DNA of 62,234 nt from a virus (lineage: Duplodnaviria > Caudoviricetes), in the IMG/VR virus record IMGVR_UViG_3300020044_009834, positions 1-62,234 of that record; one strand, given 5' to 3'. A program made the position numbers and the translations under genes. Within the stretch, counting starts at the first letter, position 1; the number at the start of each line of letters is the position of its first letter. The notes beneath the pieces are model-generated. The model did no database searches and was not told the origin of the DNA. It saw only the letters and a list, made by a program, of their open reading frames with translations. Shown here in pieces: positions 1,810-61,876 of this stretch.

Positions 1810-2093
1810 GCAGTAGAGACACTAAACTTAGAATAATAAAAGCAGGGCATAAAGCTGTTGAAGAATTAATAAAAGTTGCAGAAGAATCTATTCTTAAACA
1901 TAATGATGATGGGGATGACTTAGCTGCTGATAAGTTAAAGAATGCTGCCATGACTAAAAAGCTTGCTATATTTGATGCTTTTGAGATTCTTAGTAGAATT
2001 GAATTAGAAACAGAAAACATTGAAGCAATTGGTAGAGGTGTAACAGTAACAGATACAAAACAAGGGTTTGCAGAACGAAGGTCTAAAAAATAA
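1806..2093 (+). CDS. putative terminase small subunit
   Basis: Short helical protein directly upstream of TerL; call is positional. Confidence 0.5.
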   Translation: MSSRDTKLRIIKAGHKAVEELIKVAEESILKHNDDGDDLAADKLKNAAMTKKLAIFDAFEILSRIELETENIEAIGRGVTVTDTKQGFAERRSKK

Positions 2094-21821: not shown

Positions 21822-24800
21822 ATGCCGGATTTAAAACAATCATTAAGAGATTTCGTAGCTACTTCAAATAGTGGCAAATATTCTACAGAAGAAGAGTTAT
21901 TATCTAAGTTCCCTGAATTGCAAGGATATGATATTCAATCATTGAAAGATTTTGTAGCTACTTCTAACAGCGGAAAATATGGTACAGAAGAAGAAGTACT
22001 TTCTAAGTTTCCTGAATTTGGACTTACTTCTGAAGACCCATTAAAAAAAAAAGAGCAAACACAACTCCCTACTCAGGGAAACGTGTCAGGTACTATGGGA
22101 TTACCTTCGGAAAGTACTTCTTCGGGTTCGCTAAAGCCATTTGATAAGAACGCACTTTTAGCTAAGGGGTTAAAGCAAACAACAATTGCTACCCCTTTAG
22201 AATCAGCACCTCAGAGTAAACAAGAAATTATAGATAATGCAAATTTTAGAACTCCAACAAACTTAACTTCTCTTCAGGCTATAAATAATGCTGCCCAAGA
22301 AAAAGTAAGAGTAGAAAAAGAAAAACTTGATTTAAGGAACCAAATATTTACTTACCAAACATTAAACCCTGAAACAAAAGGGGGTGGATATGCTGCGTTA
22401 GAAAATATCATTTTAGACCCTAATCAATCTGAAGAAAAAAAATTAGCTGCTCAAAAACAAAAGGAAACTGTAGATAAATATTTTCAATTAAGCGAGAAAA
22501 CAAAAGCCCTTAATGCTCGTATAGATAAAGATGAAACTATTAGACAAAAAGGTTTAGATGAAAGATATGGTTCTTATAGAAATACTACAGAATCATTCAA
22601 ATCTTATGGCATAAAAGGTGTAACAGGTTTTATGGGTATGCTGAATGCAATTGGTGGACAAGAAGATGAATTTAATTATGACAAATTTAAATCAATTTTA
22701 AAATCCTATGCAATTGAAAGTAGTATTACGTTATCTCCTGAGGAAAAAGAAAAACTTAGAAAAGACAACGAATATAATGATGATGGAAGTTTAGATGAAG
22801 AAGTTCGTACACAAAAAAGAGAAAAACTTGCAGTAGTAAATAAATTTGCTGATTCATTAATAACTCAAGAAACTCCTAAAAATTGGCAAAAACTTTTTGA
22901 AGGAGAATGGAGTGCAAATAGAGTAGGATATGTAATTTCTCAAGCATTTGGTCAAGTACTTCCAACAGTTGCAGCAGGATTTTTAGGAGGAGGAACAGGA
23001 GCAGTAGCAGCAGGAGCAGCAGGAGCAGGTATGGCATATAATGAAAGTTTTGATATGTTTGAGAAAGCAGGTTTAACAACTAGACAATCTGAATTAGCAG
23101 CTACAGCATTATCAATTCCTCTTGGTGTATTAGAGGCAATGGGTGTTTCTGACCTAGTAACCAAACCTGCATTTAAACTTCTACTGAAAGAAACAACAAG
23201 AGATGTTATTTCTAAATTAGCAACAAAAGAACTTACAGAAGCCTCTTTATTCTCATATGTAAAAGCTACAATGGGTCAAAAAATAAAAGAGTATGGTAAG
23301 GATTTAGTAATGTCGGGAGTAAAAGAGCCTTTGACAGAGATAGAGCAGGCTTTATTAAGTGAAGCAGCCGGTCAAACAGCAGAGGCATATACCGGTAAAG
23401 ATAGTAATAAAGACCAAACAATGGCTCAGTACCTAAAGGAATTAGGTCTTAAAGTTTCTGAAGAAGGTTTCTATGGTTTAGTAGGTGGTGTTGGAACATC
23501 AGCAGTTACTTCTGCTGTACAGAATCAAGCAAATCCAACTGCTTATGGCAGGGCATTAGAGTTAAAAGATGATGCTCTAATGAGTGAGTTTAAAAAGCAA
23601 TTAGACCGTGAGGTAAAGAAAGGTATCATTACTCAAGAACAAGCTGTTACAGCTGTAGAAAACGTACATAAAATACAAGCAGCCGACAATCAGATACCAT
23701 CTACAATAGAAGGTAATGAAAGAAGAAGTATGACTGCTACTTTGATACAAATAAAGCAGGCTTTAAAAAATGAAATAGAAGGTAAAGATAAGTCATTAAC
23801 CGGTCCTACTCAAGCAGCTATAGCTGATATTGATGTTAAACTAAATGAGATTGCAACAGGAGAAGATACCAAAACTGAACAAGTTTCTCCTAAAGGTGAA
23901 GGCATACTAGCTAATCCTGAGACTACAACTGCTGCATTAGAGGCTTTACCTCTTGAAGAAAAAACAACTGCTACATTTAAAGACACCAATGGTGATACAG
24001 TTTCTATTTTAGGAAACGAAAAAAAATTATCAGATTTGTTCCATGAAGCGCAATCAACTCCGGAAGATAAACGTACAGAATTCCAACAGTCTATAATAGA
24101 CACAGTAGAAGTGTCCTTAAAGACACCATTAGATTTAGAGACTGAAGTATCAAGACTTGAGTCTGAGTTTGGTCTTGATAAACAAACAATAACAGAGGCA
24201 GATACAGCTATTTCTCAGCTTTCAGACAACGAACAAGTTACAGAAACTGTTACTTCACTTGATGATGTTCCTGTTCAATTTAGAGATAGAGTTACAGTAA
24301 ATAAAACAGAGGGAACTCCTAAAAGAAAAAGATTCTTTGGTATACCATATGGTAAAGAAGTTAAGGGTCAAACAAAAGAGACTTATACTTACACAGCAAC
24401 AGGAAAAGAAATAAAAAGTGCGTATGCTGCAACTAAACAACAAGTAGGAGCAGCACCAACTACAGATACCGGTGTGTCTGCAACAAACAAGTCTTCTCTT
24501 GATACTTTAAAAGCAAAGACTACTGATGCTGTTAAACTAAAAGTTGTAGAATCAGCACAAAGGGCAATAAAAACTTTACAGTCTGTTATGCCTAACTTTG
24601 ACATTGTTGTTCATGAAGATGAAGGAAGTTACAATGCTGCTGTTGAAAAAACAGGAGGTAAGCAAAATACGAAAGGTAACTTTAATGCTGTTAAGAATGC
24701 TGATGGAACCTATTCAGGAAGAATAGATATAAACTTATCAAGAGCATCAACTACAACTGTAGCGCACGAGGTGGCACATGGTATCATGTTACAAGCCTTT

Positions 24801-27800
24801 GGTGACAAACCTGCTTTGTTTAAAGAATTCAGAAATAAAATATCAACTGTTTTAAAGCAAAGTACTAATGATAAATTGATTGCATTTGCAGACCAATATA
24901 AGACAGATGTTACTTATGAAGAGTATCTTGCTGAGTTAACAGGTTTATTAGAGCAAGAGCAAGCTAATATCTCACCTACTACACTACAAAGGATTGCTGC
25001 TATTATTAATAAACTTGTTTCAACTTTATCAGCAGGTCAAATAAAAGTATTTGAAGATTTAAAAAATACTAAAGATGTAATTGATTTCTTTAGCAATGTA
25101 TCTCAAGCCATAAAGGGGGGAGAAGCTATTCAGTTTTTAAATGAAACCCAAGCCTATGGTGAGGGTTTAGCAATAAAAGTACCCTCTGATTTTGTAGCTA
25201 CAAAGTCTAAGAAACTATCTGCTAAGAGTCAGATTGGAGACTATGTTATACCATCTAAATATGTTGGTAAGGATGAGTTTGATGTTTTGAAACTAGGGGA
25301 AGTTCCGGTTAAAAATCTTACAGACCTGATTAAACAATACGAGGGAAGAGTAGTTATTATCACGAGTGATGCCACAGGATACGGTGTAGATTCTGATAAC
25401 GAACCGATACTAGGTGGTTATGGATTTGCTAACAATGCAAAAAATATAGAGGATGGAATTGGATTTGCAAGTTTAGGTGTTGGAACTGTAAAGGGTGCTT
25501 ATACTGCTGCTGAAAAAGCATATGGTCAGGGTAAGACTCTTGTTCTTATTATGATTCAACCACCTCATACCACTATAAACAACTCTTATGGTGCTAAGTA
25601 CTTAATGAGAGCAATGCAACAACTTGGAACGCTATCACCTAAAAAACTAGCTGAAGCTAAGGAGTCTATAAAAAAATTTATCAATAACTCAAAAGCAATG
25701 CAAGATGAGTTAAAAGCTGAAGAAGAAGCAGCTGAAGAAGAAGCATTAGCAATAAAAGAAGCAAAAGAAAAAGGGGAAGAAATTAAAAAATCTGAAGCAG
25801 GAGCAAAAAGAAGAACATCTAAAGTTGAATTATTTAAACTTATTGATAGCATTCAGCCTAATTCAAATTTAAAAGAATTAACTGATGCTTATTTAAACTG
25901 CACTACATTTAATACAAGAAAGTATATAGGAATGGGTGTTTTATCTGAACATAAAGATGTACAAACAAATGAAAAAACAACAAAAAGTAAATTATTATTT
26001 CGTGAAGTTGGTGCTACTATATATGATTTCTTAAAAGAATATGGCGACCAATCATTCTTAACAGAAGATATGATGCTTAATAATGTTGGTGGATTTACTG
26101 TAGGTGGATTTGAGTTAGATGTTACATCTGTAGAGGAAAGAGAAAAACTAATTGAAGAAATTCAAACTAAAGGAATTCTGCATCCATTATTTAATGGTAA
26201 ATTACCGGGTACAAATCACTTTATTTTAGATGGTGTTTATGATGTTCAAGAAAACTTTGGTGAGTTTGCAAGACCTGAAAAGGGAATTGATATGTCTACT
26301 CAGTTGGATAAGGTAACAGCAAAAGAAAGAAAGGCTTGGTTTGATGAATTTATAACTAAAAAAGATGCAACTACAACATCAGGAATTGGAATAGACCGAG
26401 CAAAATTTAAAAAAGAATATAGAAAACTACCTAAAAAAGAACTAAAAGAAGAATATTTTATAGATAAGGTAAAACCATCTTTTCAAAATGGATTAGAAAA
26501 CATTGTCAGAGATAAGATGTCAAGAAAGTATTTTGAAAAATTAGCTAATGGTAATAAAGATAAATTAAACAGTTTTTATTTAGCGAAAAATAGAGATGTT
26601 GACCCATCTAAAAGGACATATAGTATGTTATCTGCACCTAATAAAGTTAATTTTAAAGATACATATCTTGCCCCAAAAGGATTACTGAAAGATGTTGCGA
26701 CTCATGTTCCAACTAAAGTTGCAGGGGGAATTGGGTTTATACCACAAGAGGGTGCTGCCGAACGAATGGCACAAACTGAATTTAAGAAGAGTGAAAAACT
26801 AACACAACAAAAAAATGATAAAGAAAACAACGCAGGGGTACAAAGTAACCTCGGAAAAGGGCAAGAATCTAAGCAAGCCAAATCTAACAAAAGCGCAAGC
26901 AGTAAAAAGATTAGCACAAGTGGAGATGTTCAAGCATATGAAGAAGAAGTAACTGCATTAGAGCAATCTTTCCCAATCAATAAGTCTCAGGTAGATGCAT
27001 GGCATGGAAGTCCACATTTATTTGATAAGTTTACCACAGAAAAAATAGGAACCGGTGAAGGCGCACAAGCATTTGGTTGGGGTCTTTATTTTTCTGATGT
27101 TAAAGGTATAGCACAAGCATATGCTGATAGATTATCAGCAATAAGTATACAAGCAGAAGCTATTGCTCAATTTGTTTATGGAACAGGATATACAAACGAA
27201 AATATACAAGATATTGTATCTAAAAGTGTTGATGAAAGAATAAAACTCATAAATGATGCATATGATAAAACAGTAAACAAAATAAAATCTTCTATAAACT
27301 ATGAAAAGGCTCCTGATTTTGCAAATGAAATAATAGATAATCAAACTAAATTAAAAAATAGATACATAGAACAAGCAAAAAGTAATGCCGGTCGTGTATT
27401 ATATAAAGTATCACTTCACCAAGGGAAAACTCCTGAGCAATATAATTGGGTAGAATGGGATAAACGTATAAAAGAACAGACTTTTGATAAAATAAAAAAA
27501 TCTTTAGGGGAAAAAGGATATCAAATTAAAAATAAAGAGAATCAAGGTTTTCATTTATATTCAAAAGAAGGTTTATTATTAGGCTATTATAATATGTATG
27601 ATAGTGGACAAGAATTATATTCGGAATTAGATAAAACATTAGGCAGTCCTCAAAAAGCTTCTTTATTTCTACTTGAGAATGGTATTGATGGTATTAAGTA
27701 TCCTGCCGAAAGTATATCTCGTGGTGCAACTAGTGATACTGCAAGAGGTTCTAACTATGTGGTATTTGATGAGAATGCTGTAACTGTTAACGCAATCAAT

Positions 27801-30800
27801 AAATCTCAAGAAGATGCAGTAAAAACTATTGATAGAATGGTTAGAGATGCTAGAGGTCAAGGTTTCTCTGAAGAGGCAATTGCAATATTCTTAGAAAGAA
27901 ACGGTTTTACTGCTCAGGAAATAGAGGAAGTAATGGATACAGAGTTAGGTGCATCTAAGCAAATGGTATTATCAGAAGAGACAATGCCGGGCTTTGATAA
28001 GATGATGGCAGCTATAAATAAGGCAATCAAAAAAGATAAAGCCTTGACAACTGTTCCAAACAAAGATATCTTGAGTCGTATCATGAAGTACTTAGCAAAA
28101 CAAGATACATATAAGAATGCTACAGATGTACAAAGAGAAAAGTTAGTTCGTGACATCAGAAAGATAATTGGTATCAGAGAGAAAGCAGTTAAGAATCTAA
28201 GTACTACTCTTGATAAATTTGAAAGATATGATGCATCCCATGGAATAGATGTTACCTTAGGAAATATTGTTGACCCAAATAATATTACCATGACTGAGAA
28301 GGAATTACTTATCAAGCAAATCAAAGACTATGCAAGAGGTGCTAGGGATGTAAAAGCTGCTTGGGTAAAAGCAAGTGCTGAACTTACTAAAGACATCAAG
28401 AATATGATGAAAACAGGTAAGATATCAGTTAAGCAAGCAGCAAGTATTGTTCGTAGATTTAGTGCTGTAAATGTATTCAGCGAGAAGTCTATTGGCAAGT
28501 TTGTTGACTATATGACTAAGGTATTTAATGATGCCGAATATGTAAACCAATTATCTATAGCGCAAAAAACTAAAAAGGCTATTGCATCTTTATCTAAAAA
28601 TCAAGATAGAAATGCTAACCTAAGAGAGTTAGGGAAGAAGTTTACAGAGATAGACCCATCTATGGTGGATGATATCTATAAGTACAATACTGTAGCAGCT
28701 GCTATTTATGAAGCTATTTATGGTTCCAAACTAACTAGTGAAGGACCAAAATTTGCTCAAACTATTAATATAGAATCAGTTTCTAAGTATGTGGATGAGA
28801 TGGTTGAATCTCAAAATAAGAAATTATTAGATGAAAAGATTGCTGAAATCCAAGAGTTATTAGGCATTGATGCATCTAAGTTTACTCCTCAGGAAATAAA
28901 AGCTTTATTAGAAAATACACAAACAATAAAGAAAAGCAATGAGGTTGCTATCAAGGATTCTATCAAAAAAATGTTTGGTATATACTCTACTCTTATCAAG
29001 GAAACCATAAGTAGAGGAACTGATTTGTTTACCGGAGAACCAAGGAACTTTACTAAGCAACAAAAAGAATTGATAGGCAGATTCATGGCAATGGACTTGA
29101 ATAATTTAAATGCAAAACAGTCTTTAGCTGCCGTTGATAGTCTTATAAATTTCTTCCAAAATGATTCTACCGCTAAAATGGAAGCTGTTCTATCTGACTA
29201 TACAGCTATGGAAAATACCAAGACTCTAATAGATAAAAACATAAAAAGTTTAAGATTAAGCAAATGGTTTAGTGATGATTTTGGTAAACTTTTAGCAGAA
29301 CAAACTTATAACTTACCAATGTTATTTGAGAGAATGTTTAAAGGAGTGGGTCGTGGTGCTTATGTTCAAAAGATGTCAGGCTTAACTAAACTAATAAACA
29401 AAAAATCTTTAGCTGTTTCTGAATCAAATGCCATTGTAGAAGAGTACGTTAGTCAGTTCTATAAGAAAGAAGCCAATGGAGAGGCTTTCAACACATCTGA
29501 AAATAATGTAGAAAGAGGTATGGCTGCATTTATGATGAGAACATTTGTTGGAAGCGAAGAAAAAATGCAAACTGAATTCAATAGAAGGAAGGGATTAGTT
29601 AAACAGACCATTGATGTATTATCAAAAGGTAATGATGAAGAAAAAGTAAAAGGAGAACTATATCAAAAAGTATATGATAAGATTTTTTCTGTTGCAAAAA
29701 ATCCATTAAGTCCTAATCAAGTATCAGGAACTGAACCACAAAATGCAAAAGAAATAGCAGAAAGAATAGATAAGGTTAACTTAGAAGCTATTCAGTTTTG
29801 GCAAAATGCTTGGGGTGATAAATTTGATAAGTTAGCCGATGTTTCTTTAAATGTATACAATAAAGTACTAAACAAAGAATTAAACTACATCCCTGATAAT
29901 CTAAGAAAATTAGCTTCTAATAGTAAAACAACAGATTTACAAAGTACCGCAGCGATGAATGAATCATCATTTCATCACAACAATAATTCATTGTATGATA
30001 CGGAAGCAGGTGTTTTACAAACTCCTTCATATCCTATAGAATTACCTACAGATGATAAGAATAACAGAACTAATAGAGTAGTTGATTTCTCATTTGATAG
30101 TAATAATGCCAACTCTATGTATGATGCACTTGTGGATGTAAACACCGCAGCTGCTGTAAGACAAGTTGATACTTTTATAAATGGCGATGACTTTAATAAA
30201 ATATTCAATATAGAAGATGGAGAAATGTTGAAGGATAGAATAGAAGGTTATGTAAGGAATATTAGAAGTAGAAATATTTACTCTCAAGATGAGTTCAGTA
30301 AGTTTGCAAAGGCTCTTAATAAAGTGGCTGCAATTGGTGTAGGTCAAGCATTAGCCGGTCCAACTCAGACTTTAAAACAAGTTATACCTGTTGCGTTTAA
30401 CACATTAGTAAATGCTCAAAATTTAGATGTAATTTCTTCTTTGAATTCTGACTTTCAAACTTGGTTAGGAGAATCAGGCTATGCTATTGGTACAAGGGGA
30501 GTAAAATCTCAAGCTGATATTGAATCTTTAAATAAATTAATAAAAGAAGATGCTAAAACCGGAGGTAAAAAAACACTTGAACTTGTGCTTAAAGCCAATG
30601 AATGGTGGTTACAAACTTTCTTAGTTTCTCCCGATGTGTATATTGCTAAAGCATCTTGGAAGTCTTACTATGAAAAGAGTTTGAGACAACAAGGTATTGA
30701 CACAAAGAATTTAGATTATAGTAGCCATACTTTAAATGAAGATGCAGCCGATTATGCTCAGAGGATGGTCGATAGACAACAGAACGTATCTGATGCTGAT

Positions 30801-31745
30801 TTAAATGGATTCTTATTTACAAATAAAGAAGCAAGCAGACAAATACTTGTAAAGATTTTCATGCCTTTTGCTAACTTCAGAATGAATCAGGCAGCTAGAT
30901 TAGGCTCAGATATAAATGTACTTACAAGCAAAACATCTACAGTAGAAGACAGAAGAACTGCTGCATTATCTTTATCGGGATTTGCTGTAGAGATGGCTGT
31001 ATTTAAAATGTTATCAGGTGGTCTTGTATATTTATTTGGTTCACTTACTAAGTGGCTTATGGATGATGATGAAAATAAAGAGGAAAGAAAGAAAAGAAGA
31101 GAAAGTATTATAAAAGGTCAAGCTACATCAGCAGTTGCAGATATACTGTCTCCTGCTCCTCTTTTAGACCCTATTTTACAGTATGGTGCAGCATATGCAC
31201 TAGCGCAAACTCAGCGTATGTTAAAAACAAAAGAAAAAGATGTAGTATCTTTATACGAACCAAAAGCCAAAACTATTGCGGAGCAGTATGGTTTGTTTGG
31301 TATTCCTCTTATCAGAGCAGCACAATTAGGTGAAATGACTATGTTAGCTTACAATGGTATTTATAAAGATGATTATGGAAGAGAGAGAAAAATAAGTAAA
31401 AATGACCAAGAACTTATTGGCAATATGATTCCACTTGCTCTTCTTACAAATATTGGATTAGCACCTGTAGAAGTAAATACAGTTATGAGAAATACAATCA
31501 AGTTTGCTAAGAAAGGTTCTAAGACTATAAAATCTGTAGATAGAGAAAAGTCTAACGATTACGGTATATACGATACCAAGGAAGATTTAAAAAGATACGA
31601 CCCAATTTTATATGAAGAAAAATTCGGTAAGAACTCTGAAAACTATCTTGAAAATGAAGAAGAAAGAAAAGATAAAAAAGAAGAGAGAGATTTGAAGAGA
31701 GCCGAAAAGGATGCTAAGTATGGATATGTTCCAAAAGTAAAATAA
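21822..31745 (+). CDS. giant polyvalent virion protein with zincin-like metallopeptidase and ADP-ribosyltransferase-like domains
   Basis: 3307 aa; duplicated 33-aa N-terminal repeat; Gly/Ala hydrophobic helices; HEVAH at ~24765; WHGSPH.FDKF...GTGEGAQAFGWGLYF...DGIKY...NYVVFDE at ~27000-27780. Confidence 0.8.
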   Translation: MPDLKQSLRDFVATSNSGKYSTEEELLSKFPELQGYDIQSLKDFVATSNSGKYGTEEEVLSKFPEFGLTSEDPLKKKEQTQLPTQGNVSGTMGLPSESTSSGSLKPFDKNALLAKGLKQTTIATPLESAPQSKQEIIDNANFRTPTNLTSLQAINNAAQEKVRVEKEKLDLRNQIFTYQTLNPETKGGGYAALENIILDPNQSEEKKLAAQKQKETVDKYFQLSEKTKALNARIDKDETIRQKGLDERYGSYRNTTESFKSYGIKGVTGFMGMLNAIGGQEDEFNYDKFKSILKSYAIESSITLSPEEKEKLRKDNEYNDDGSLDEEVRTQKREKLAVVNKFADSLITQETPKNWQKLFEGEWSANRVGYVISQAFGQVLPTVAAGFLGGGTGAVAAGAAGAGMAYNESFDMFEKAGLTTRQSELAATALSIPLGVLEAMGVSDLVTKPAFKLLLKETTRDVISKLATKELTEASLFSYVKATMGQKIKEYGKDLVMSGVKEPLTEIEQALLSEAAGQTAEAYTGKDSNKDQTMAQYLKELGLKVSEEGFYGLVGGVGTSAVTSAVQNQANPTAYGRALELKDDALMSEFKKQLDREVKKGIITQEQAVTAVENVHKIQAADNQIPSTIEGNERRSMTATLIQIKQALKNEIEGKDKSLTGPTQAAIADIDVKLNEIATGEDTKTEQVSPKGEGILANPETTTAALEALPLEEKTTATFKDTNGDTVSILGNEKKLSDLFHEAQSTPEDKRTEFQQSIIDTVEVSLKTPLDLETEVSRLESEFGLDKQTITEADTAISQLSDNEQVTETVTSLDDVPVQFRDRVTVNKTEGTPKRKRFFGIPYGKEVKGQTKETYTYTATGKEIKSAYAATKQQVGAAPTTDTGVSATNKSSLDTLKAKTTDAVKLKVVESAQRAIKTLQSVMPNFDIVVHEDEGSYNAAVEKTGGKQNTKGNFNAVKNADGTYSGRIDINLSRASTTTVAHEVAHGIMLQAFGDKPALFKEFRNKISTVLKQSTNDKLIAFADQYKTDVTYEEYLAELTGLLEQEQANISPTTLQRIAAIINKLVSTLSAGQIKVFEDLKNTKDVIDFFSNVSQAIKGGEAIQFLNETQAYGEGLAIKVPSDFVATKSKKLSAKSQIGDYVIPSKYVGKDEFDVLKLGEVPVKNLTDLIKQYEGRVVIITSDATGYGVDSDNEPILGGYGFANNAKNIEDGIGFASLGVGTVKGAYTAAEKAYGQGKTLVLIMIQPPHTTINNSYGAKYLMRAMQQLGTLSPKKLAEAKESIKKFINNSKAMQDELKAEEEAAEEEALAIKEAKEKGEEIKKSEAGAKRRTSKVELFKLIDSIQPNSNLKELTDAYLNCTTFNTRKYIGMGVLSEHKDVQTNEKTTKSKLLFREVGATIYDFLKEYGDQSFLTEDMMLNNVGGFTVGGFELDVTSVEEREKLIEEIQTKGILHPLFNGKLPGTNHFILDGVYDVQENFGEFARPEKGIDMSTQLDKVTAKERKAWFDEFITKKDATTTSGIGIDRAKFKKEYRKLPKKELKEEYFIDKVKPSFQNGLENIVRDKMSRKYFEKLANGNKDKLNSFYLAKNRDVDPSKRTYSMLSAPNKVNFKDTYLAPKGLLKDVATHVPTKVAGGIGFIPQEGAAERMAQTEFKKSEKLTQQKNDKENNAGVQSNLGKGQESKQAKSNKSASSKKISTSGDVQAYEEEVTALEQSFPINKSQVDAWHGSPHLFDKFTTEKIGTGEGAQAFGWGLYFSDVKGIAQAYADRLSAISIQAEAIAQFVYGTGYTNENIQDIVSKSVDERIKLINDAYDKTVNKIKSSINYEKAPDFANEIIDNQTKLKNRYIEQAKSNAGRVLYKVSLHQGKTPEQYNWVEWDKRIKEQTFDKIKKSLGEKGYQIKNKENQGFHLYSKEGLLLGYYNMYDSGQELYSELDKTLGSPQKASLFLLENGIDGIKYPAESISRGATSDTARGSNYVVFDENAVTVNAINKSQEDAVKTIDRMVRDARGQGFSEEAIAIFLERNGFTAQEIEEVMDTELGASKQMVLSEETMPGFDKMMAAINKAIKKDKALTTVPNKDILSRIMKYLAKQDTYKNATDVQREKLVRDIRKIIGIREKAVKNLSTTLDKFERYDASHGIDVTLGNIVDPNNITMTEKELLIKQIKDYARGARDVKAAWVKASAELTKDIKNMMKTGKISVKQAASIVRRFSAVNVFSEKSIGKFVDYMTKVFNDAEYVNQLSIAQKTKKAIASLSKNQDRNANLRELGKKFTEIDPSMVDDIYKYNTVAAAIYEAIYGSKLTSEGPKFAQTINIESVSKYVDEMVESQNKKLLDEKIAEIQELLGIDASKFTPQEIKALLENTQTIKKSNEVAIKDSIKKMFGIYSTLIKETISRGTDLFTGEPRNFTKQQKELIGRFMAMDLNNLNAKQSLAAVDSLINFFQNDSTAKMEAVLSDYTAMENTKTLIDKNIKSLRLSKWFSDDFGKLLAEQTYNLPMLFERMFKGVGRGAYVQKMSGLTKLINKKSLAVSESNAIVEEYVSQFYKKEANGEAFNTSENNVERGMAAFMMRTFVGSEEKMQTEFNRRKGLVKQTIDVLSKGNDEEKVKGELYQKVYDKIFSVAKNPLSPNQVSGTEPQNAKEIAERIDKVNLEAIQFWQNAWGDKFDKLADVSLNVYNKVLNKELNYIPDNLRKLASNSKTTDLQSTAAMNESSFHHNNNSLYDTEAGVLQTPSYPIELPTDDKNNRTNRVVDFSFDSNNANSMYDALVDVNTAAAVRQVDTFINGDDFNKIFNIEDGEMLKDRIEGYVRNIRSRNIYSQDEFSKFAKALNKVAAIGVGQALAGPTQTLKQVIPVAFNTLVNAQNLDVISSLNSDFQTWLGESGYAIGTRGVKSQADIESLNKLIKEDAKTGGKKTLELVLKANEWWLQTFLVSPDVYIAKASWKSYYEKSLRQQGIDTKNLDYSSHTLNEDAADYAQRMVDRQQNVSDADLNGFLFTNKEASRQILVKIFMPFANFRMNQAARLGSDINVLTSKTSTVEDRRTAALSLSGFAVEMAVFKMLSGGLVYLFGSLTKWLMDDDENKEERKKRRESIIKGQATSAVADILSPAPLLDPILQYGAAYALAQTQRMLKTKEKDVVSLYEPKAKTIAEQYGLFGIPLIRAAQLGEMTMLAYNGIYKDDYGRERKISKNDQELIGNMIPLALLTNIGLAPVEVNTVMRNTIKFAKKGSKTIKSVDREKSNDYGIYDTKEDLKRYDPILYEEKFGKNSENYLENEEERKDKKEERDLKRAEKDAKYGYVPKVK
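24111..24126. promoter_or_regulatory. GTGTC-N6-GACAC palindrome (inside giant gene)
   Basis: GTGTC CTTAAA GACAC. Confidence 0.7.
26815..26952 (+). CDS. 45-aa basic protein nested in the +1 frame of the giant gene
   Basis: MIKKTTQGYKVTSEKGKNLSKPNLTKAQAVKRLAQVEMFKHMKKK*; A-rich leader; the host frame here is a low-complexity linker. Confidence 0.65.
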   Translation: MIKKTTQGYKVTSEKGKNLSKPNLTKAQAVKRLAQVEMFKHMKKK

Positions 31746-38183: not shown

Positions 38184-38220
38184 GTTTTTGTGTTTGTTTT
38201 TTTTGCCCTAAACGATTAAA

Positions 38221-38260
38221 ACTGAGAGCATTACCCTTAGGGCTAGATAACACTCTCAGT
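38221..38260 (-). other. long bulged RNA hairpin (possible RNase III-type processing site)
   Basis: - strand ACTGAGAGTGTT ATCTA GCCCTAAGGGT AATGCTCTCAGT; G-U pairs form only on the - strand. Confidence 0.5.
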
Positions 38261-38267
38261 ATCTTTT

Positions 38268-38283
38268 GTGTCCTTAAAGACAC
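38268..38283. promoter_or_regulatory. GTGTC-N6-GACAC palindrome
   Basis: GTGTC CTTAAA GACAC, 2 nt after a stop codon. Confidence 0.75.
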
Positions 38284-42212: not shown

Positions 42213-43013
42213 TTAATTATAAATTGGTCTTAATTGGCTGTCTACATGATTGAATGGTAATGAGTCTATTAACTCACTATACGCAACCTCCACTAACTCT
42301 TCGATGAAGTCTGTACCCAAAAGATTTGACTTTGCTCTCGCACCTACTGATAGAATCTTTAAGTACCCATGCTCCAAGTCAATGTCTTTTATGTTCTCTC
42401 TGATGACCTTGACCCTATCTTCGAACACCTCTATGTCTTTTAGTTCTGTTTGTATAATCTCACAGTACTCATCAAAGTTTACACTCTCGCCTACAGCCTT
42501 TAGATATTCATTATCGTTATGACCATCATTAGTCATTATGAAGTCTAATAAGCACCCAAGTGTATGTCCATCGTTATCTAGCACGTTGAAGTTATCCGTT
42601 TTTAAACCCCACTCAAATGCTGTATTTGGATGGAATGAATTGAAACCATCTCGTGATGTGTATTTCTCTTTTACATACGCATCAAACTCACTCATGTATT
42701 GATGTATGTATGTTCTAATAGCATCTACCTTAGGCACAATAGTCACATAAATGCTGTCGTTCTCAAAGTTATAGTACTTAGGAGAAGATACCTTCTCAAA
42801 GGTCATTGACTCTATGAACCCCATACTAATTAAGTCATCTTGCATCTTTTCAACCAATGTAAATGCAACCATCTTACGATATGCAGACCAATCTACTTGT
42901 ACATCATTTGATGATACATTGTACTCATCACAGTATGAATCCATCTCTGCATCACCATCCCAAAAAGTTCCGTAAAAGCCTTTGAATAAAGGCAACCATG
43001 TTTTAATTTCCAT
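42213..43013 (-). CDS. hypothetical acidic early protein
   Basis: LPLF.GFYGT, SPKYYNF.ND.I, TSRDGF.SF motifs. Confidence 0.7.
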   Translation of the reverse strand: MEIKTWLPLFKGFYGTFWDGDAEMDSYCDEYNVSSNDVQVDWSAYRKMVAFTLVEKMQDDLISMGFIESMTFEKVSSPKYYNFENDSIYVTIVPKVDAIRTYIHQYMSEFDAYVKEKYTSRDGFNSFHPNTAFEWGLKTDNFNVLDNDGHTLGCLLDFIMTNDGHNDNEYLKAVGESVNFDEYCEIIQTELKDIEVFEDRVKVIRENIKDIDLEHGYLKILSVGARAKSNLLGTDFIEELVEVAYSELIDSLPFNHVDSQLRPIYN

Positions 43014-43179
43014 TTCGTATGTTGTTTATAAAGTTTAAAATTTCTTCCTCAGAGTACTCATCATTTAAGTCCTCCATCAGATTCATTATGACCGAATCTG
43101 CATTGTCATTCACATACATCTCAAGTTTTAAGGTATTGATGTCGTAGTACCTTTTTTTAATTGCTTCTAGTATTTTCAT
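43003..43179 (-). CDS. small hypothetical protein
   Basis: MKILEAIKKRYYDINTLKLEMYVNDNADSVIMNLMEDLNDEYSEEEILNFINNIRNGN*; A-rich leader; not in the track as such. Confidence 0.6.
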   Translation of the reverse strand: MKILEAIKKRYYDINTLKLEMYVNDNADSVIMNLMEDLNDEYSEEEILNFINNIRNGN

Positions 43180-43193
43180 AATTTAGTTTTATT

Positions 43194-43246
43194 TTCTGTT
43201 TCATCCTTTTGGAATCTTCAGCCGAGACACTCATCTCGATACAGAA
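43194..43246 (-). ncRNA. type III hammerhead ribozyme 1
   Basis: UUCUG-UA | UCGAGA UGAGUG UCUCGG | CUGAAGA | U UCC AAAA GGA U | GAAA | CAGAA; predicted cut between 43240 and 43239. Confidence 0.88.
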
Positions 43247-43249
43247 GGA

Positions 43250-43265
43250 GTGTCTACAAAGACAC
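43250..43265. promoter_or_regulatory. GTGTC-N6-GACAC palindrome
   Basis: GGAGTGTC TACAAA GACACTCC. Confidence 0.8.
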
Positions 43266-43274
43266 TCCCATGAA

Positions 43275-44369
43275 TTATAGTTTGAACTTGACAATGTCTT
43301 GCTCACCGAACCATCCACCACATCCACTACAATGATAGTTTGCGAACCCATCATGCTTTAAATCGTGGAAACAATCTACGCATATTGGAATCTCATCGTT
43401 AAGGTCATAATCACTCACCTCATCCAATTGCTCCTCCATTGTAATCTCCTCGAAAAAGAAGTCTCTCTTGCTAGGATAGATAGGGTAAATTGGCTTTGGT
43501 GCAATGTATGGTCTCGGAACATATGTTGGTGCGATGTATGACTTGTGTAGCACCTCACCATGCTCATTCTCTTTGATGTTGAAGTATATCCAACATGAGA
43601 TTTTTTTGCCATTGAACATTATCGGAATCTTTTTCCTTCTGTACCAATTTGGATGACCCTCTAGTCTATCTAAATTAGTAAGTGTACTGCCACTCACTTT
43701 GAATATGTCCACCTCTACATTGTGTCCGATACCTTCCCTATCTATCAGATATGGTAGACTCCTAATCACTAAAGGATACTTACCTTTAGTAGTGCCACTC
43801 CCAATAAACGTAGACCTTGACAGATGGTGATGGTAATTGCTATAACCCTTTTTTAGTGTGCCATATACAGCCACATAAATGTTCTCTAGCACATTGTCTT
43901 TTGAGTACCATACACCATCAATTTGAGTCCATAAATGCCTATTGTAAATCTCATATGTTTTGCTACGAATATTGATGGTAACGAACCTACATTGATGCTC
44001 TGCTAACTTAGTCTTCCACTCTTGCCTTGGCACATCTCCTATGTTCTGAGCCAATACTTTTGAGTCACAAGTAGCTTGGTCACCTAACCCTTTAATAGTG
44101 CCATTCATCATAAGGTATTCATGTTTATTTGTACCGCACATGAACGGATGTGTATTGGATAAATTGACTGCGCCCATGGTAGCATATCTGAAGTGAGCAA
44201 TGTATGGTCTTGCTGTATCGAGAACCTTGTATTCATTTGACTTGTGATACGTTATCTTAAACGTATCCAACCACACGACTCCCAACCCATGCGGATTGAT
44301 TTTAGAGGAGGATTCTAGTACCTCTGATGCAACTTGCATCCCTTTCTTTTTAACGATTATTATACACAT
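43275..44369 (-). CDS. class II glutamine amidotransferase fused to gamma-glutamylcyclotransferase (AIG2-like), with C-terminal Zn ribbon
   Basis: N-terminal MC, NPHGLG, HFRYAT.G, NTHPF, NG; VAVYGTLKKG, LDRLEG.P..Y.R; CVDC...CSGC. Confidence 0.88.
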   Translation of the reverse strand: MCIIIVKKKGMQVASEVLESSSKINPHGLGVVWLDTFKITYHKSNEYKVLDTARPYIAHFRYATMGAVNLSNTHPFMCGTNKHEYLMMNGTIKGLGDQATCDSKVLAQNIGDVPRQEWKTKLAEHQCRFVTINIRSKTYEIYNRHLWTQIDGVWYSKDNVLENIYVAVYGTLKKGYSNYHHHLSRSTFIGSGTTKGKYPLVIRSLPYLIDREGIGHNVEVDIFKVSGSTLTNLDRLEGHPNWYRRKKIPIMFNGKKISCWIYFNIKENEHGEVLHKSYIAPTYVPRPYIAPKPIYPIYPSKRDFFFEEITMEEQLDEVSDYDLNDEIPICVDCFHDLKHDGFANYHCSGCGGWFGEQDIVKFKL

Positions 44370-44388
44370 ATTTGATTGAATTAAATTG

Positions 44389-44490
44389 TAATCAGAATGG
44401 GATTTGAACCCATATGTACTGCCCGATAGGGGCAGACTACCGATGTGAGGAGCGACCTCACACCTATGTCTAACATTCCATCATCTGATT
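44389..44490 (-). ncRNA. tRNA-like RNA with non-canonical anticodon and variable arms
   Basis: Acceptor AATCAGA/TCTGATT-A, D arm ATGGAATGTTAGACAT, 8-bp/5-nt hairpin, 6-bp hairpin, T arm ATGGGTTCAAATCCCAT. Confidence 0.75.
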
Positions 44491-44507
44491 ATTGGACTTT
44501 GAATGTA

Positions 44508-44515
44508 CGAAGGTA
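44508..44515 (-). promoter_or_regulatory. variant -7 box (TACCTTCG)
   Basis: Intergenic, just upstream of the tRNA-like RNA. Confidence 0.45.
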
Positions 44516-44555
44516 ATACTATCTATGTACATTCACAATATGACTTTTGTCATGT

Positions 44556-44810
44556 TTAGTAATCACCCCAACTACCACCGCTCATCTCTTGATGCAGATT
44601 GTCCTTATCTGTCACATCGAACCCTTGTCGACCTTCTTGCCACTCGTAGAATGAATCGTACCAATCTTGAAACTGTTCAACTGATGTAAAACTTGCATGA
44701 CCTTGTGAATCGCATCCATCACAATCTGTTGACCACACGTTGATGTAGGCTATCCCATCATTTTTTAAAGCCTCTTCGATTCTATCTTGCTGTTCGTACA
44801 TTTGCTCCAT
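44556..44810 (-). CDS. hypothetical acidic protein
   Basis: Likely start MEQMYEQQ; DCDGC motif. Confidence 0.6.
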   Translation of the reverse strand: MEQMYEQQDRIEEALKNDGIAYINVWSTDCDGCDSQGHASFTSVEQFQDWYDSFYEWQEGRQGFDVTDKDNLHQEMSGGSWGDY

Positions 44811-44985
44811 AGATTCTAATGCCATCAATAACTTGAGAATTAATCTCAAATTCAAAAAATAGTCTGTCTAACTCAGACATGAATACTCCTCTGTCCTTAC
44901 TTGGTAAGTACATGAGTCTGTCAATTACATCTTGCACAATTTCTTTGCGCTCATCCTCTGTTGGGATTAATTCTAAATAGTTCAT
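44782..44985 (-). CDS. hypothetical protein
   Basis: 67 aa; A-rich leader directly after hammerhead 2. Confidence 0.65.
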   Translation of the reverse strand: MNYLELIPTEDERKEIVQDVIDRLMYLPSKDRGVFMSELDRLFFEFEINSQVIDGIRIYGANVRTAR

Positions 44986-45000
44986 ATTTTTGGTTTTATT

Positions 45001-45053
45001 TTCTGTTTCATCTTTTAAGAATCATCAGCACGGACACTCATCCGTGTACAGAA
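45001..45053 (-). ncRNA. type III hammerhead ribozyme 2
   Basis: UUCUG-UA | CACGGA UGAGUG UCCGUG | CUGAUGA | U UCU UAAA AGA U | GAAA | CAGAA; stems covary with copy 1; predicted cut between 45047 and 45046. Confidence 0.9.
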
Positions 45054-45056
45054 GGA

Positions 45057-45072
45057 GTGTCTTTGTAGACAC
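45057..45072. promoter_or_regulatory. GTGTC-N6-GACAC palindrome (spacer inverted)
   Basis: GGAGTGTC TTTGTA GACACTCC. Confidence 0.8.
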
Positions 45073-45082
45073 TCCCTTTATA

Positions 45083-45322
45083 TTATTTAAAGTACTCTCT
45101 GAGTGAACGCATTTCGTAGTTCATCTCATTCTCATCCTCTGCCTCGTACCCATAAGTTAACTCCACCCAATCAAAGAACTCATCCTTCTGAGCCTCTGAT
45201 AACTCCTCATACAACTCCTTGGACTGCTTATGCTGTCCATTTAACTTGCTTTCTAATATGTACTCATAGTACTCTTCGATGTATGAGAACTCATATGTTC
45301 CCAATGTTTGCTTAGTTACCAT
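45083..45322 (-). CDS. hypothetical acidic protein
   Basis: 79 aa; YILES..NGQ..Q motif. Confidence 0.7.
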   Translation of the reverse strand: MVTKQTLGTYEFSYIEEYYEYILESKLNGQHKQSKELYEELSEAQKDEFFDWVELTYGYEAEDENEMNYEMRSLREYFK

Positions 45323-46761: not shown

Positions 46762-46811
46762 TGTGAGCAAAGGAATCGAACCTTTTAAAGCTACCAAATA
46801 AGCAACCCACA
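46762..46811 (-). ncRNA. mini tRNA mimic (acceptor + D-like arm + T arm, no anticodon arm)
   Basis: TGTGGGT T GCTTATTTGGTAGC TTTA AAAGG TTCGATT CCTTT GCTCACA. Confidence 0.75.
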
Positions 46812-47408: not shown

Positions 47409-47410
47409 AT

Positions 47411-50508: not shown

Positions 50509-52167
50509 ATGATAAACGAAACAATGTACTCACCGAAGGAATTACAATTCGGTGAAAACGGTAGAAACAAATTAATCAGGGGTGTCATGAAGATGTCCGC
50601 TGCTGTAAAAAGCACATTAGGTCCAAGTGGCAACACAGTTCTAATTGAATCACCAAACCATACACATGGCATCACGGTGACTAAGGATGGTGTGACAGTT
50701 GCTAGGGCTGTAGACTTAATTGACCCTGTAGAAAACCTTGCGGTTAGGATGATGAAGGAAGCATCGGAACGCACAGCTACTTCGGCAGGTGATGGCACGA
50801 CAACAGCAATAGTCTTGACTGAGGCTTTGGTCTTGGGAGGTCAGAAGCATATCAAACCTGAGCATAATAGGACAGAGGTGCTGAGACAATTGCAGGACAT
50901 GAGTAATAAGGTCGTGGATAAGTTAAAGAGAAAGAGTAAAAAAGTTACAAGTACTATGCTGACAGATGTGGCGACTATATCTTGTAACAATGACAGAGAG
51001 ATTGGGAAGATAATAGCAGATGTGTATAGAGATGTTGGGAAGACCGGCATAGTAACAGTTGAGAAATCACAGACAGCAGATACATATTCTGAGACTACTA
51101 TGGGATTGAAGTTTGATAGAGGGTATTTGTCACCATTATTTATCAATGACCAAAAGAAAGATGAGTGTGTCTTCGAGGACACTTATGTATTGGTTGCGGA
51201 TATTGAGATTGCAAACATCTTACAAATAGAAAACGTGTTGAAACCTATAATTGCTGAAGGCAAAAAGTTGCTCATAATTTCACCATGTAATGGGAATGTG
51301 ATAAACACATTGGCAGCTAATGTTATGAAGGGTCATATCAAGGTGTGTGCAGTTCCACCTCCGGGATTCGGATACAAGCAGCATGAGTTGATGCAGGACA
51401 TTTCGGTTAGTGTTGGTGCAACATACTTCAGCGAGAAGACCGGTGATGATTTGAGCCATGTAACATTTGAAGACTTAGGACACGCAGCTAAGGTAATAGT
51501 TAGTAAAGACAAAACCATTATTGTCAAGTCTGACCTGATAGCAAACAAGGATGAGGTACAGGAAAGAGTTAAGCAGTTATGGGAGGCACACACTTTAGCA
51601 AAACGCAAGGGTGACAAGGACTTTATATTGGAGAGAATCGCTTCGTTGACAGGTGGTATTGGTGTAATCTTCGTTGGTGGCAACACGGACTTAGAGCAAA
51701 AGGAGTTGTATGACAGGATTGATGATGCGGTGTGTGCGGTACGCTCGGCAATGGAGGAAGGAATCCTTCCGGGAGCAGGCAAGGCATTGTACGAAATACA
51801 GTTGAATGAACTAGTAAACCATACAGTAGCATCATTAGAAGCAATAGCAGCAGCAAATATTCTGTTTGATGCAATGAAAGCACCATTGACACAGATATTA
51901 GATAACGCAGGTCTAAAGGTTTGGGATATCTACCATGGCGAAGAACAAGAAGGATACGGATACAATTTAAAGAACGGAGAGTTTGGTGACCTAATTAAGA
52001 TTGGTGTCATTGACCCATTGAAGGTAACAAGAAGCGCATTACAAAATGCGGTGAGTGTAGCCATTACTATCATGAGTACAAATGCAATTATTACGATGGC
52101 AAGAACATTCGAGCCATCAGAACCACAAACATTAGCTAACACATACGAGGAGTACAATGGAAAATAA
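50509..52167 (+). CDS. groEL: chaperonin GroEL
   Basis: TLGP, TKDGVTVA, GDGTTTA, FDRGYLSP, ERIASL.GG, IDPLKVTRSALQNA; no GGM tail. Confidence 0.97.
   Translation: MINETMYSPKELQFGENGRNKLIRGVMKMSAAVKSTLGPSGNTVLIESPNHTHGITVTKDGVTVARAVDLIDPVENLAVRMMKEASERTATSAGDGTTTAIVLTEALVLGGQKHIKPEHNRTEVLRQLQDMSNKVVDKLKRKSKKVTSTMLTDVATISCNNDREIGKIIADVYRDVGKTGIVTVEKSQTADTYSETTMGLKFDRGYLSPLFINDQKKDECVFEDTYVLVADIEIANILQIENVLKPIIAEGKKLLIISPCNGNVINTLAANVMKGHIKVCAVPPPGFGYKQHELMQDISVSVGATYFSEKTGDDLSHVTFEDLGHAAKVIVSKDKTIIVKSDLIANKDEVQERVKQLWEAHTLAKRKGDKDFILERIASLTGGIGVIFVGGNTDLEQKELYDRIDDAVCAVRSAMEEGILPGAGKALYEIQLNELVNHTVASLEAIAAANILFDAMKAPLTQILDNAGLKVWDIYHGEEQEGYGYNLKNGEFGDLIKIGVIDPLKVTRSALQNAVSVAITIMSTNAIITMARTFEPSEPQTLANTYEEYNGK
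51167..51182. promoter_or_regulatory. GTGTC-N6-GACAC palindrome (inside groEL)
   Basis: GTGTC TTCGAG GACAC. Confidence 0.65.
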
Positions 52168-55268: not shown

Positions 55269-55342
55269 AAGGATAATAAGTCAATTGGGTTGGCGATGGT
55301 CGCAAAACCATTATGGCTTGTTCGATTCAAGCATTATCCTCT

Positions 55343-60008: not shown

Positions 60009-61876
60009 TGAGAGTACCATTTGGACTATTTAAACCTACATCATCTGTTCCTGTAGCACTTCCATTTATTTCAACTTGGAGAACAACAGCACCAAGTCAA
60101 AGTATAACATTGCCTTACAATGTATCAGGAACTTATAGTGGAACAATTAATTGGGGTGATGGGAATACAAGTGTAAATAGTTATGCTAATAGAACGCATA
60201 CTTATGCAACAGCAGCAGATTATATAGTTACTATAACAGGCACTACAACAGGATGGGAATTTGGCGGTTCAGTTGATGCGCCTAAAATACGTTCAGTTAG
60301 TCAATGGGGTACTTTAAAAATATCAAATACATCAAATCAATTTCGAGGTTGTACTAGTTTAATATTATCTTCAGTATCTGATGTTTTGGATTTAACAGGA
60401 ATAACAAATTTAAGTCGTTGTTTTGCAGGTTGCAGTAGTCTTACTTCAATTAATAATATAAATTCATGGAATACAAGTAATATTACTAATATGACTTATA
60501 TGTTTTGGGATGCATTTAATTTTAATCAACTATTATCATTTAATACAGCAAATGTTACAAATATGTCTAATATGTTTTTAAATTGTAGTGCATTTAATCA
60601 AGCAATGTCATTTAATACAGGAAGTGTTACTAATATGGAAGGTATGTTTCAAAGTTGTAATACTTTTAATAGTATAGTAACATTTAATACAGCAAATGTT
60701 ACAAATATGACTCAAATGTTTTATGGTTGTGCTGCATTTAATAAAGCAATATCATTTAATACTAATAATGTAACAACTATGTCAGGTATGTTTCAAGGTT
60801 GTACTGTATTTAATAGTACAGTAACATTTACTGATACTATTAATGTTATTTCTATGCCATCTATATTTCAAAGTTGTAGTGCATTCAATCAACCATTATC
60901 ATTTAATACACAAAATGTTGTTAATATGAATAGTATGTTTTTTGGTTGTACTGTATATAATCAAGCAATATCATTTAATACAGGAAGTGTAACAACTATG
61001 CAATATATGTTTTATAATTGTATTGCATTTAATAGTACAATATCATTTACCAATACTAGTCTTGTTACAAATATGAGTGATATGTTTCATAATTGTACTG
61101 TATTTAATCAAACCATACCATTCAATACAGTTAGTGTAACAACTATGAATTCTATGTTTTGGGGATGTACTGCATATAATCAATCCATATCATTTAATAC
61201 GGCAAATGTTACAAATATGTCTTATATGTTTAGAGATTGTGTTAATTTTAATCAACCTCTTACTTTTGACACAAGTAAAGTAACTGCATTTGGCTTAATG
61301 TTTTGGAATTGTACTTCATTTAATCAAAATATTAATTTTAATACAGCATTATGTACAAGTGTTTCAAGTATGTTCTATAATTGTATTAATTTTAATGGAA
61401 CATTTGGTTCTAATTTTACCTGTTCTAATGTTACAGATATGAATAATATGTTTGATTCTTGTACTATTTTTAATCAACCTCTTACATATTTTAATACAGG
61501 AAATGTAACTACTTTTGTAAGAATGTTTTTAAATAGTACTTCTTTTAATCAACCTCTTACTTTTAACACAAGTAAAGCAACAACAATGTTTGGAATGTTT
61601 CAAGGTGCAACTGCATTTAATCAAGATATAAGTGCTTGGGATATTTCAAAAGTTCAAAACTTTGCAAATTTTATGTTAGGCAAAAGTGCAGCAAATTATA
61701 ATGCAGCGTATTTAGATAATATATATAATTCATGGAGTACACAACCTGTTCAAGTTGTTCAATTTAATACTCCTCTTAATTTTGGAACAATAAAATATAC
61801 AGTAGCAGGTTCAGCAGGAAAAGCAGTTTTAACATCTCCTCCGATTAGTTGGGGAATAACTGATGGAGGAATATAA
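60008..61876 (+). CDS. BspA/DUF285-type repeat surface protein with PKD-like N-terminal domain
   Basis: INWGDG...HTY; many FNT.NVT.M..MF..C..FNQ repeats. Confidence 0.88.
   Translation: MRVPFGLFKPTSSVPVALPFISTWRTTAPSQSITLPYNVSGTYSGTINWGDGNTSVNSYANRTHTYATAADYIVTITGTTTGWEFGGSVDAPKIRSVSQWGTLKISNTSNQFRGCTSLILSSVSDVLDLTGITNLSRCFAGCSSLTSINNINSWNTSNITNMTYMFWDAFNFNQLLSFNTANVTNMSNMFLNCSAFNQAMSFNTGSVTNMEGMFQSCNTFNSIVTFNTANVTNMTQMFYGCAAFNKAISFNTNNVTTMSGMFQGCTVFNSTVTFTDTINVISMPSIFQSCSAFNQPLSFNTQNVVNMNSMFFGCTVYNQAISFNTGSVTTMQYMFYNCIAFNSTISFTNTSLVTNMSDMFHNCTVFNQTIPFNTVSVTTMNSMFWGCTAYNQSISFNTANVTNMSYMFRDCVNFNQPLTFDTSKVTAFGLMFWNCTSFNQNINFNTALCTSVSSMFYNCINFNGTFGSNFTCSNVTDMNNMFDSCTIFNQPLTYFNTGNVTTFVRMFLNSTSFNQPLTFNTSKATTMFGMFQGATAFNQDISAWDISKVQNFANFMLGKSAANYNAAYLDNIYNSWSTQPVQVVQFNTPLNFGTIKYTVAGSAGKAVLTSPPISWGITDGGI

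Follow-up and report, generated by a model that had tools for sequence, protein, structure and literature searches.

Two putative hammerhead ribozymes of type III, members of a widespread phage class, placed before start codons on the minus strand of a Flavobacteriaceae-type podovirus

Two short elements on the minus strand of the virus record IMGVR_UViG_3300020044_009834 raise the question of whether they are functional self-cleaving ribozymes and what they would do to the transcripts that carry them. The complete IMG/VR record of 62,234 nucleotides (nt) was analysed and is called the window here. The two elements, hammerhead A (43246 to 43194, minus strand) and hammerhead B (45053 to 45001, minus strand), were recognised from the sequence, the minimum free energy fold, the Rfam model RF00008, a covariance model of the phage class and a structural descriptor. 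They are likely to be functional type III hammerheads of a widespread phage class that self-cleave early polycistronic transcripts. This reading rests on computation, namely the motif, its non-chance occurrence, the covariation of the class and the fixed place before start codons.

Hammerhead A was found to contain, 5′ to 3′ in the RNA, the segments UUCUGUA / UCGAGA-UGAGUG-UCUCGG / CUGAAGA / UUCC-AAAA-GGAU / GAAA-CAGAA. Stem III is formed by 43241-43246 with 43194-43199, followed by stem I (43234-43239 with 43222-43227) closed by loop I at 43228-43233. The core CUGAAGA occupies 43221 to 43215, followed by stem II and its loop at 43203-43214, in which U10.1 is 43214 and U11.1 is 43203. The nucleotides G12-A13-A14 lie at 43200-43202 and the GAAA segment at 43202 to 43199, with U16.1 at 43241 and A17 at 43240. 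By hammerhead numbering, cleavage is predicted between A17 and U1.1, at 43240/43239 of the minus strand. Hammerhead B has the same layout shifted by +1807 and was found to contain UUCUGUA / CACGGA-UGAGUG-UCCGUG / CUGAUGA / UUCU-UAAA-AGAU / GAAA-CAGAA, with the core CUGAUGA at 45028 to 45022, GAAA at 45009 to 45006 and U16.1 at 45048, all on the minus strand. Its predicted cleavage site, by the same numbering, is 45047/45046, between A17 (45047) and C1.1 (45046).

Both copies were found to contain a stem III of 5 base pairs (bp) plus the A15.1-U16.1 pair, a stem I of 6 bp and a stem II of 3 bp above U10.1-U11.1, with UGAGUG in loop I of both and an A-rich loop II. The type III core (C3-U4-G5-A6-N7-G8-A9 and G12-A13-A14, with A15.1-U16.1) is complete in both, and the cleavage triplet is GUA, in which nucleotide 17 is A, a non-G nucleotide as the NUH rule has it. 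The three-way junction is the minimum free energy fold of both 57-nt stretches, with stem III open-ended and stems I and II closed by loops. Between copies A and B four pairs are changed on both sides with pairing kept (three in stem I, one in stem II), one further pair is changed from U.G to C-G, and no pair is broken. The first-pass annotation had given these coordinates, the core, the GUA triplet and both cut sites, which were found to be exact on the minus strand; its account of covarying stems, an identical loop I, an A-rich loop II and U/U at 10.1/11.1 likewise holds in the sequence.

The full descriptor asked for the core, U16.1 and a nucleotide 17 other than G, with minimum lengths of 5 bp for stem I, 3 bp for stem II (positions 10.1/11.1 unconstrained) and 4 bp for stem III. 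It was found to match the window twice, solely at hammerheads A and B, and gave one match in total over 300 first-order Markov sequences of the window's length and dinucleotide make-up. The loose core pattern CTGANGA-N8-36-GAAA is mildly enriched and carries little information, its matches in the window numbering 14 against 4.9 expected. The class covariance model, trained on 96 rows of which two are the window copies themselves, gave 73.7 bits for A and 72.1 bits for B, the next best score in the window being 13.5 bits with filters off. The two elements are not a chance resemblance.

The class to which they belong was collected among viral contigs with the exact pattern CTGTA-N18-CTGANGA-N12-GAAACAG, which fixes stem III, the core and two spacer lengths alone, and was found in at least 118 stretches. 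An alignment was made of 96 distinct 55-mers from the matches listed, including the two window copies. All six pairs of stem I were found to be paired in 96 of 96 sequences, with four to five pair types each and two-sided changes at every pair, followed by the inner three pairs of stem II, which were also paired in all 96 and all covary. Stem III was left free by the pattern at its fifth pair, which was paired in 91 of the 96 with six pair types. The covariation score of the class was 0.698 as compared with 0.170 for shuffled alignments (none of 500 reached 0.698), and was at most 0.12 when the partners were slid by one to three columns. Positions 1 and 2 of loop I and positions 2 and 4 of loop II were found to be invariant, though the pattern had left the loops free, and three further loop positions were conserved in at least 90% of the sequences, giving the consensus UG-GU for loop I and -AAA for loop II. 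Such invariance is what a tertiary contact between the loops of stems I and II would give, and suggests one.

At the base of stem II, U/U was found in both window copies in place of the consensus G10.1-C11.1 pair. The first-pass annotation had implied that this is rare, which did not survive the comparison: positions 10.1/11.1 were occupied by U/U in 79 of the 96 class sequences, by G-C in 16 and by G.U in one, so U10.1-U11.1 is what most members of this large and tightly defined phage class have, and it has been on record as a natural variant since 2011 (PMC3088659). According to Perreault et al. 2011, stem II of natural hammerheads may begin with a U10.1-U11.1 mismatch, and section 8 of that paper states that this mismatch keeps more activity than other mispairs (PMC3088659). 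Active hammerheads from nature with this departure are on record (PMC3088659), so U/U at 10.1/11.1 does not exclude the two copies from hammerhead membership.

The class has a very regular place in its genomes: a hairpin precedes the motif, and a start codon follows it at 10-39 nt. Of 98 distinct contexts compared on other contigs, 96 were found to have an open reading frame (ORF) of at least 40 codons that begins 0-39 nt 3′ of the motif, and in 95 it begins 10-39 nt after it. The 45 nt upstream of the motifs fold with a mean of -11.9 kcal/mol as compared with -5.3 kcal/mol after shuffling (59 of the 98 at -8 or lower), and an upstream ORF ends within 90 nt of the motif in 77. In the window, the ATG after hammerhead A (43179-43177) lies 14 nt downstream and the ATG after hammerhead B (44985-44983) lies 15 nt downstream, in agreement with the roughly 15 nt first reported. 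Upstream, the GC-rich hairpin A (GGGAGUGUCU-UUGU-AGACACUCC, 43247..43269, minus strand) adjoins stem III of hammerhead A and begins 6 nt past the TAA stop of the upstream gene (43277-43275), and hairpin B (GGGAGUGUCU-ACAA-AGACACUCC, 45054..45076, minus strand) adjoins hammerhead B and begins 6 nt past the TAA stop of the upstream ORF (45085-45083). The paired arms, of the form GGGAGUGUCU-N4-AGACACUCC at both loci, give 9-10 bp. A competing pairing of the hairpin 3′ arm with loop I and the 3′ strand of stem I, through the shared letters GAGUGUC, was considered and judged unlikely to matter, because the 93-nt minimum free energy fold of copy A and the centroid of copy B keep both hairpin and hammerhead, and because the shared letters are mostly consensus loop letters of the class.

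The following steps are predicted from the sequence and its setting. RNA polymerase would read through from the upstream gene of the early module, and the hammerhead would fold and cut itself after A17. The upstream RNA would then end in the GC hairpin followed by the seven nucleotides UUCUGUA with a 2′,3′-cyclic phosphate, that is, in a hairpin-protected 3′ end. The downstream RNA would start with a 5′-OH base-paired in stem I, followed by the compact ribozyme body, an A-rich unstructured leader of 14-15 nt and the AUG. The polycistronic transcript would thereby be split into units, each shielded in its stability and its translation start from the adjacent cistron, and the translation start would be standardised by the cut. 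In this scheme self-cleavage, transcription that spans the sites and the consequences for stability and translation are all inferred.

The carrier is a roughly 62-kb podovirus of Flavobacteriaceae type, with the motifs in its minus-strand early/replication module. Its large terminase was found to be 81% identical to that of the uncultured podovirus MW202828.1 and to share 47% identity with the terminases of Flavobacterium Elemovirus phages, followed by Cellulophaga, Tenacibaculum and Maribacter phages. The ORFs lack Shine-Dalgarno sequences, in keeping with a Bacteroidota host. The class motif was found once in the Elemovirus elemoA and 1, 2, 1, 1 and 4 times in the relatives G001 to G005, respectively, upstream of unrelated small ORFs. 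A search of sequencing runs found the region in no RNA run; strain variants were compared in DNA contigs from four freshwater or lake runs. The change 43236 T>C was present in all four and converts A1.4-U2.4 to G.U with the pair kept; in the main contigs of runs X4 and X5, hammerhead A and its leader are retained and most of the downstream 58-aa ORF (43014-43172, with the joint running from 43013 to 43173) is swapped for 250 other letters. From the copy number of 0-4 in relatives and the swaps between strains, the hammerhead is an optional element at the edge of exchangeable gene cassettes. Two other hammerhead-like motifs, of type I topology and with G-C at 10.1/11.1, were seen before start codons on the plus strand of contig L132 of G003 (about 1990-2080 and 2240-2330), which also has a class type III copy.

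Several points weigh against functional, self-cleaving hammerheads at these loci. The G10.1-C11.1 pair is the most conserved pair outside the core of hammerheads and is part of a metal site in classical constructs, so that in a class without it activity may be slow or conditional. Since the search pattern fixes the core, the core columns of the class alignment could not vary and prove nothing. The motif is dispensable: the closest deposited relative, MW202828.1, gave no match to the class model. In one low-depth, more distant contig, 44999-45083 is replaced by 33 letters that contain the GTGTCT-type hairpin alone, and hammerhead B is absent. The full-length alignments to RF00008, which is independent of the class model, scored 27.2 bits for A and 34.8 bits for B, under the gathering score of 48.5. 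No hammerhead match was found in the Rfam scan of the whole window at gathering thresholds or in a 3.3-kb scan at E up to 10. The matches were recovered solely from short scans of about 71-100 nt, which indicates that speed filters hide them. Other members also fall short, 37 bits being found for the G-C member L003 and 32.2 bits for PaP4; with all four tested members (A, B, L003 and PaP4) under the threshold, routine annotation misses the class.

These low scores, together with the AT-rich sequence and short helices of the elements, are what would favour a chance resemblance or a pair of decayed, non-functional copies. That explanation is close to negligible, as two descriptor matches stand against one per 300 simulations, the two copies differ by four compensatory double changes and no disruptive one, the class is large and covarying, and the strain variants keep the pairing. 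A hammerhead-like three-way junction without constitutive cleavage, acting as a structure of the 5′ untranslated region or as an ion-, protein- or ligand-dependent switch in which U-U lowers the activity, is very unlikely. It draws on U10.1-U11.1 in place of the G-C pair, on the suggestion in Perreault et al. that slower phage variants might be active under particular conditions alone (PMC3088659), and on the leader and start codon directly 3′ of stem III, where folding could gate translation (the ATG of PaP4 overlaps stem III itself). Every catalytic core position is intact in both copies, however, and the 79 U-U members occur beside G-C members of otherwise identical architecture, as expected if both are active. 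The element of the Pseudomonas phage PaP3, moreover, is listed among the variants active in vitro in the legend of Fig. S6 of that paper (PMC3088659). PaP3 was found to contain exactly one class-model match (66 bits), which has U10.1-U11.1 as its sole departure from the consensus, and the hammerhead assayed as active is therefore very probably this class match.

A different explanation is offered by the repeat in which the hammerheads lie. A repeat search gave two copies of an 88-nt unit on the minus strand, at 43182..43269 and 44989..45076, each containing the hairpin, the hammerhead and the A-rich leader. The unit can be likened to the promoter-early stem-loops of T4-type phages, which are repeated regulatory cassettes that shuffle small genes. 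It could be mainly a mobile or recombinogenic intergenic cassette, with gene-cassette exchange as its main effect and RNA cleavage secondary or serving the cassette. The 82% identity of the two copies over 88 nt takes in flanks outside the ribozyme, runs X4 and X5 keep hammerhead and leader while the downstream ORF is exchanged, the presence is patchy (0 in MW202828.1; 1, 2, 1, 1 and 4 in G001 to G005), and unrelated small ORFs follow the hammerheads of relatives. Recombination, however, needs sequence identity and not compensatory changes, whereas stems I and II are strictly paired and free in sequence, and near-invariant loops of catalytic type at a fixed distance from the start codon point to selection on the RNA. 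As the main account the cassette is unlikely, and it is compatible with a functional ribozyme.

The genes of the window at 31.8-49.8 kb lie on the minus strand. Hammerhead A is followed by an ORF of 58 amino acids (aa; 43003..43179, minus strand) and hammerhead B by one of 67 aa (44782..44985, minus strand), and no Pfam or PHROG family was found for either. Between the hammerheads lies a 364-aa gene (43275..44369, minus strand) with gamma-glutamyl cyclotransferase-like and class-II amidotransferase-like regions (Pfam PF06094, 5.3e-22; phrog_2520). A transfer RNA (tRNA)-like element at 44389-44490 lies 19 nt before the ATG of this gene. The two hammerheads and this element (44490 to 44389) bracket the gamma-glutamyl-cyclotransferase-like gene and two small ORFs.

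The hairpin that precedes both hammerheads is itself a repeated feature. The core GTGTCT-N4-AGACAC was found 13 times in the window as compared with 0.13 expected, mostly between genes and right after stop codons, at 2280, 9380, 24111, 31780, 33717, 38268, 40936, 43250, 45057, 46815, 48395, 49099 and 51167. The hairpin at 9380 was found to contain a U-tract and resembles an intrinsic terminator. The stems are extended by complementary flanks that are not conserved, and this speaks for a hairpin formed by the nucleic acid and against a plain operator; the role of the hairpin may be that of an RNA 3′ stabiliser, a terminator or a protein site. A role as N4-type virion-RNA-polymerase promoters was considered and dropped; no PHROG family was matched by the 3307-aa ORF of the window (21822-31745, plus strand) at E up to 1e-5. 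At 38215-38262 (minus strand) a perfect hairpin of roughly 16 bp was seen right after the GTGTCT-type hairpin at 38268, in a further intergenic slot, as a possible site for a double-strand-specific RNase. The hairpin at 2280 (region 1806-4320, plus strand) is embedded in sequence whose protein-level conservation takes in G001 and G004, with the 620-aa terminase ORF just downstream; 748 aa are annotated for the MW202828.1 terminase, so the N-terminus of the window terminase may be split or mis-called.

The GTGTCT-type hairpin was found to be followed by a hammerhead at two window sites (43250 and 45057) and by a tRNA or tRNA-like element at three (40936, 46815 and 48395), and tRNA-like elements follow other hairpins at 44490 and 47409. 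The element at 40926 to 40839 (minus strand) is Rfam-positive with 48.7 bits for RF00005 and has an irregular anticodon arm, and the one at 44490 to 44389 (minus strand), likewise positive with 33.3 bits for RF00005, bears a long variable arm and, where the anticodon arm would be, a 9-bp stem closed by a 5-nt loop. Three minihelices were found to contain an acceptor stem of 6-7 bp, a short linker and a T arm and no anticodon arm. Those at 46811 to 46761 and 48392 to 48351 (minus strand) have an AUGGU-type linker and a UUCGAUU T arm, and the one at 47409 to 47367 (minus strand), which follows a different hairpin, has a UUCGAUU T loop. All the minus-strand tRNA-like elements and minihelices lie 19-25 nt before a start codon (19-24 nt for the minihelices), and the minihelices are candidate substrates of RNase P. 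On the plus strand a tRNA-like element at 55271-55341 was given by relaxed ARAGORN alone, with a four-letter anticodon and an irregular anticodon arm. ARAGORN at default settings found no tRNA in the window, and the regular cloverleaf with a 7-nt anticodon loop is seen neither in the two RF00005-positive elements nor in the three minihelices.

Relatives G001 and G004 were found to contain another hairpin core, GTCTCT-N4-AGAGAC, nine and six times, respectively. In G004 one of these hairpins precedes a minihelix and one precedes a hammerhead, and the orthologous gene of MW202828.1 has only the hairpin at its flank. Similar minihelices were seen in G004 (L135, 460-499) and G002 (L136, 390-430, minus strand). 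It is possible, and proposed here tentatively, that in this phage group the hammerhead is one of several interchangeable punctuation modules, in which a group-specific GC hairpin directly behind a stop codon is followed by a ribozyme or by a minihelix that host RNase P would cut, then by an A-rich leader and a start codon. If true, this would be a DNA-phage analogue of mitochondrial tRNA punctuation, with a ribozyme and an RNase P substrate as alternative cutters. A generic minihelix descriptor was not specific, giving 31 distinct matches over about 1.1 Mb of loci as compared with 35 in reversed-sequence controls, so the support for the idea comes from a few cases that were folded one by one and have canonical T loops. 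When four minihelices were aligned with MAFFT, the register was too poor for a model to be made. Among the titles listed by a literature search on phage punctuation by tRNA-like elements or RNase P, none was relevant. The presence of minihelices in the same slot, in the window and in a relative, suggests a common and testable processing logic.

Elsewhere on the plus strand, a GroEL-like chaperonin (phrog_5725, E 3.6e-135) was found at 50509-52167. A 622-aa ORF at 60467-61621 contains long arrays of coding repeats of 72-75 nt (24-25 aa), and the window start (10-822) contains periodic repeats of 27 nt. Both arrays probably belong to repeat-rich proteins of tail or adhesin type.

Comparison with known systems places the two loci as further members of a hammerhead variant known in phages since 2011. 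The deposited phages nearest to hammerhead A are from a group other than that of the carrier and were found to be Pseudomonas phages in 71 of 78 records, with 91% identity over 45 nt, and PaP4, the one record checked among them, is a Bruynoghevirus. This identity to the PaP3-type element, the identity of the core, the covariation of the 96 members and the start-codon spacing in 95 of 98 contexts uphold the reading of the first-pass annotation, namely two type III hammerheads with U10.1-U11.1 at the base of stem II, each of which would leave a 5′-OH mRNA with a structured leader. The hammerheads of PaP3 and other Bruynoghevirus phages (PaP4, phiIBB-PAA2 and DL54 among others) are, like the window copies, of type III with a GUA triplet, a 6-bp stem I, a 6-nt loop I of the form UGNGUG, a CUGAUGA core and all segment lengths equal, and they are intergenic and directly before a start codon. 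Their stem II, UUCC-NAAA-GGAU with U10.1-U11.1, is identical to the window form, and the class model gave them 67.1 and 66 bits. They differ in stem III (AUCGU/ACGAU as compared with UUCUG/CAGAA in the window) and in the start codon, which is 1 nt after stem III in PaP3 and overlaps stem III in PaP4, whereas 14-15 nt intervene in the window. The PaP3-type element, moreover, is present in one copy per genome near the genome end, in phages of another host phylum, with no GTGTCT-type hairpin upstream. No literature was found on LUZ24 together with hammerheads, and nothing relevant was found on hammerheads as processing sites in Pseudomonas phages.

The processing idea has its own precedents. Perreault et al. 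describe multiple hammerheads that flank genes or short gene blocks in prophages, from which the processing of long phage transcripts into gene-length mRNAs was suggested (PMC3088659). Both the U10.1-U11.1 variant and the transcript-processing idea are thus published, and what is new is the membership of these two loci. In the haloviruses HF1 and HF2, HHphage stands in front of the gene that opens an early polycistronic transcript, 13 nt ahead of its start codon, and a mapped 5′ end lies within 3 nt of the cleavage site, as that paper reports (PMC3088659). It is a structurally different variant from high-salt archaeal viruses, and is likened to the window by its published description, not by sequence. 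A 2026 paper in Nucleic Acids Research states that hammerheads of DNA phages had already been described and that the roles of genomic ribozymes are mostly elusive (PMC13725137). The regular position of the class makes the old question of the role of phage hammerheads experimentally approachable.

With respect to the general family, both window copies were found to align with RF00008 (Hammerhead_3) at model positions 1-54, with the core and helices in register, and to differ from it in a shorter stem II with a tetraloop, the non-canonical 10.1/11.1 and a longer loop I. The proposed function has a counterpart in the RiboJ-type synthetic insulators, in which a hammerhead is placed between an upstream sequence and the translation start and its cleavage standardises the mRNA 5′ end; these were engineered from a plant satellite RNA hammerhead, and their likeness to the window elements is an analogy of function only.

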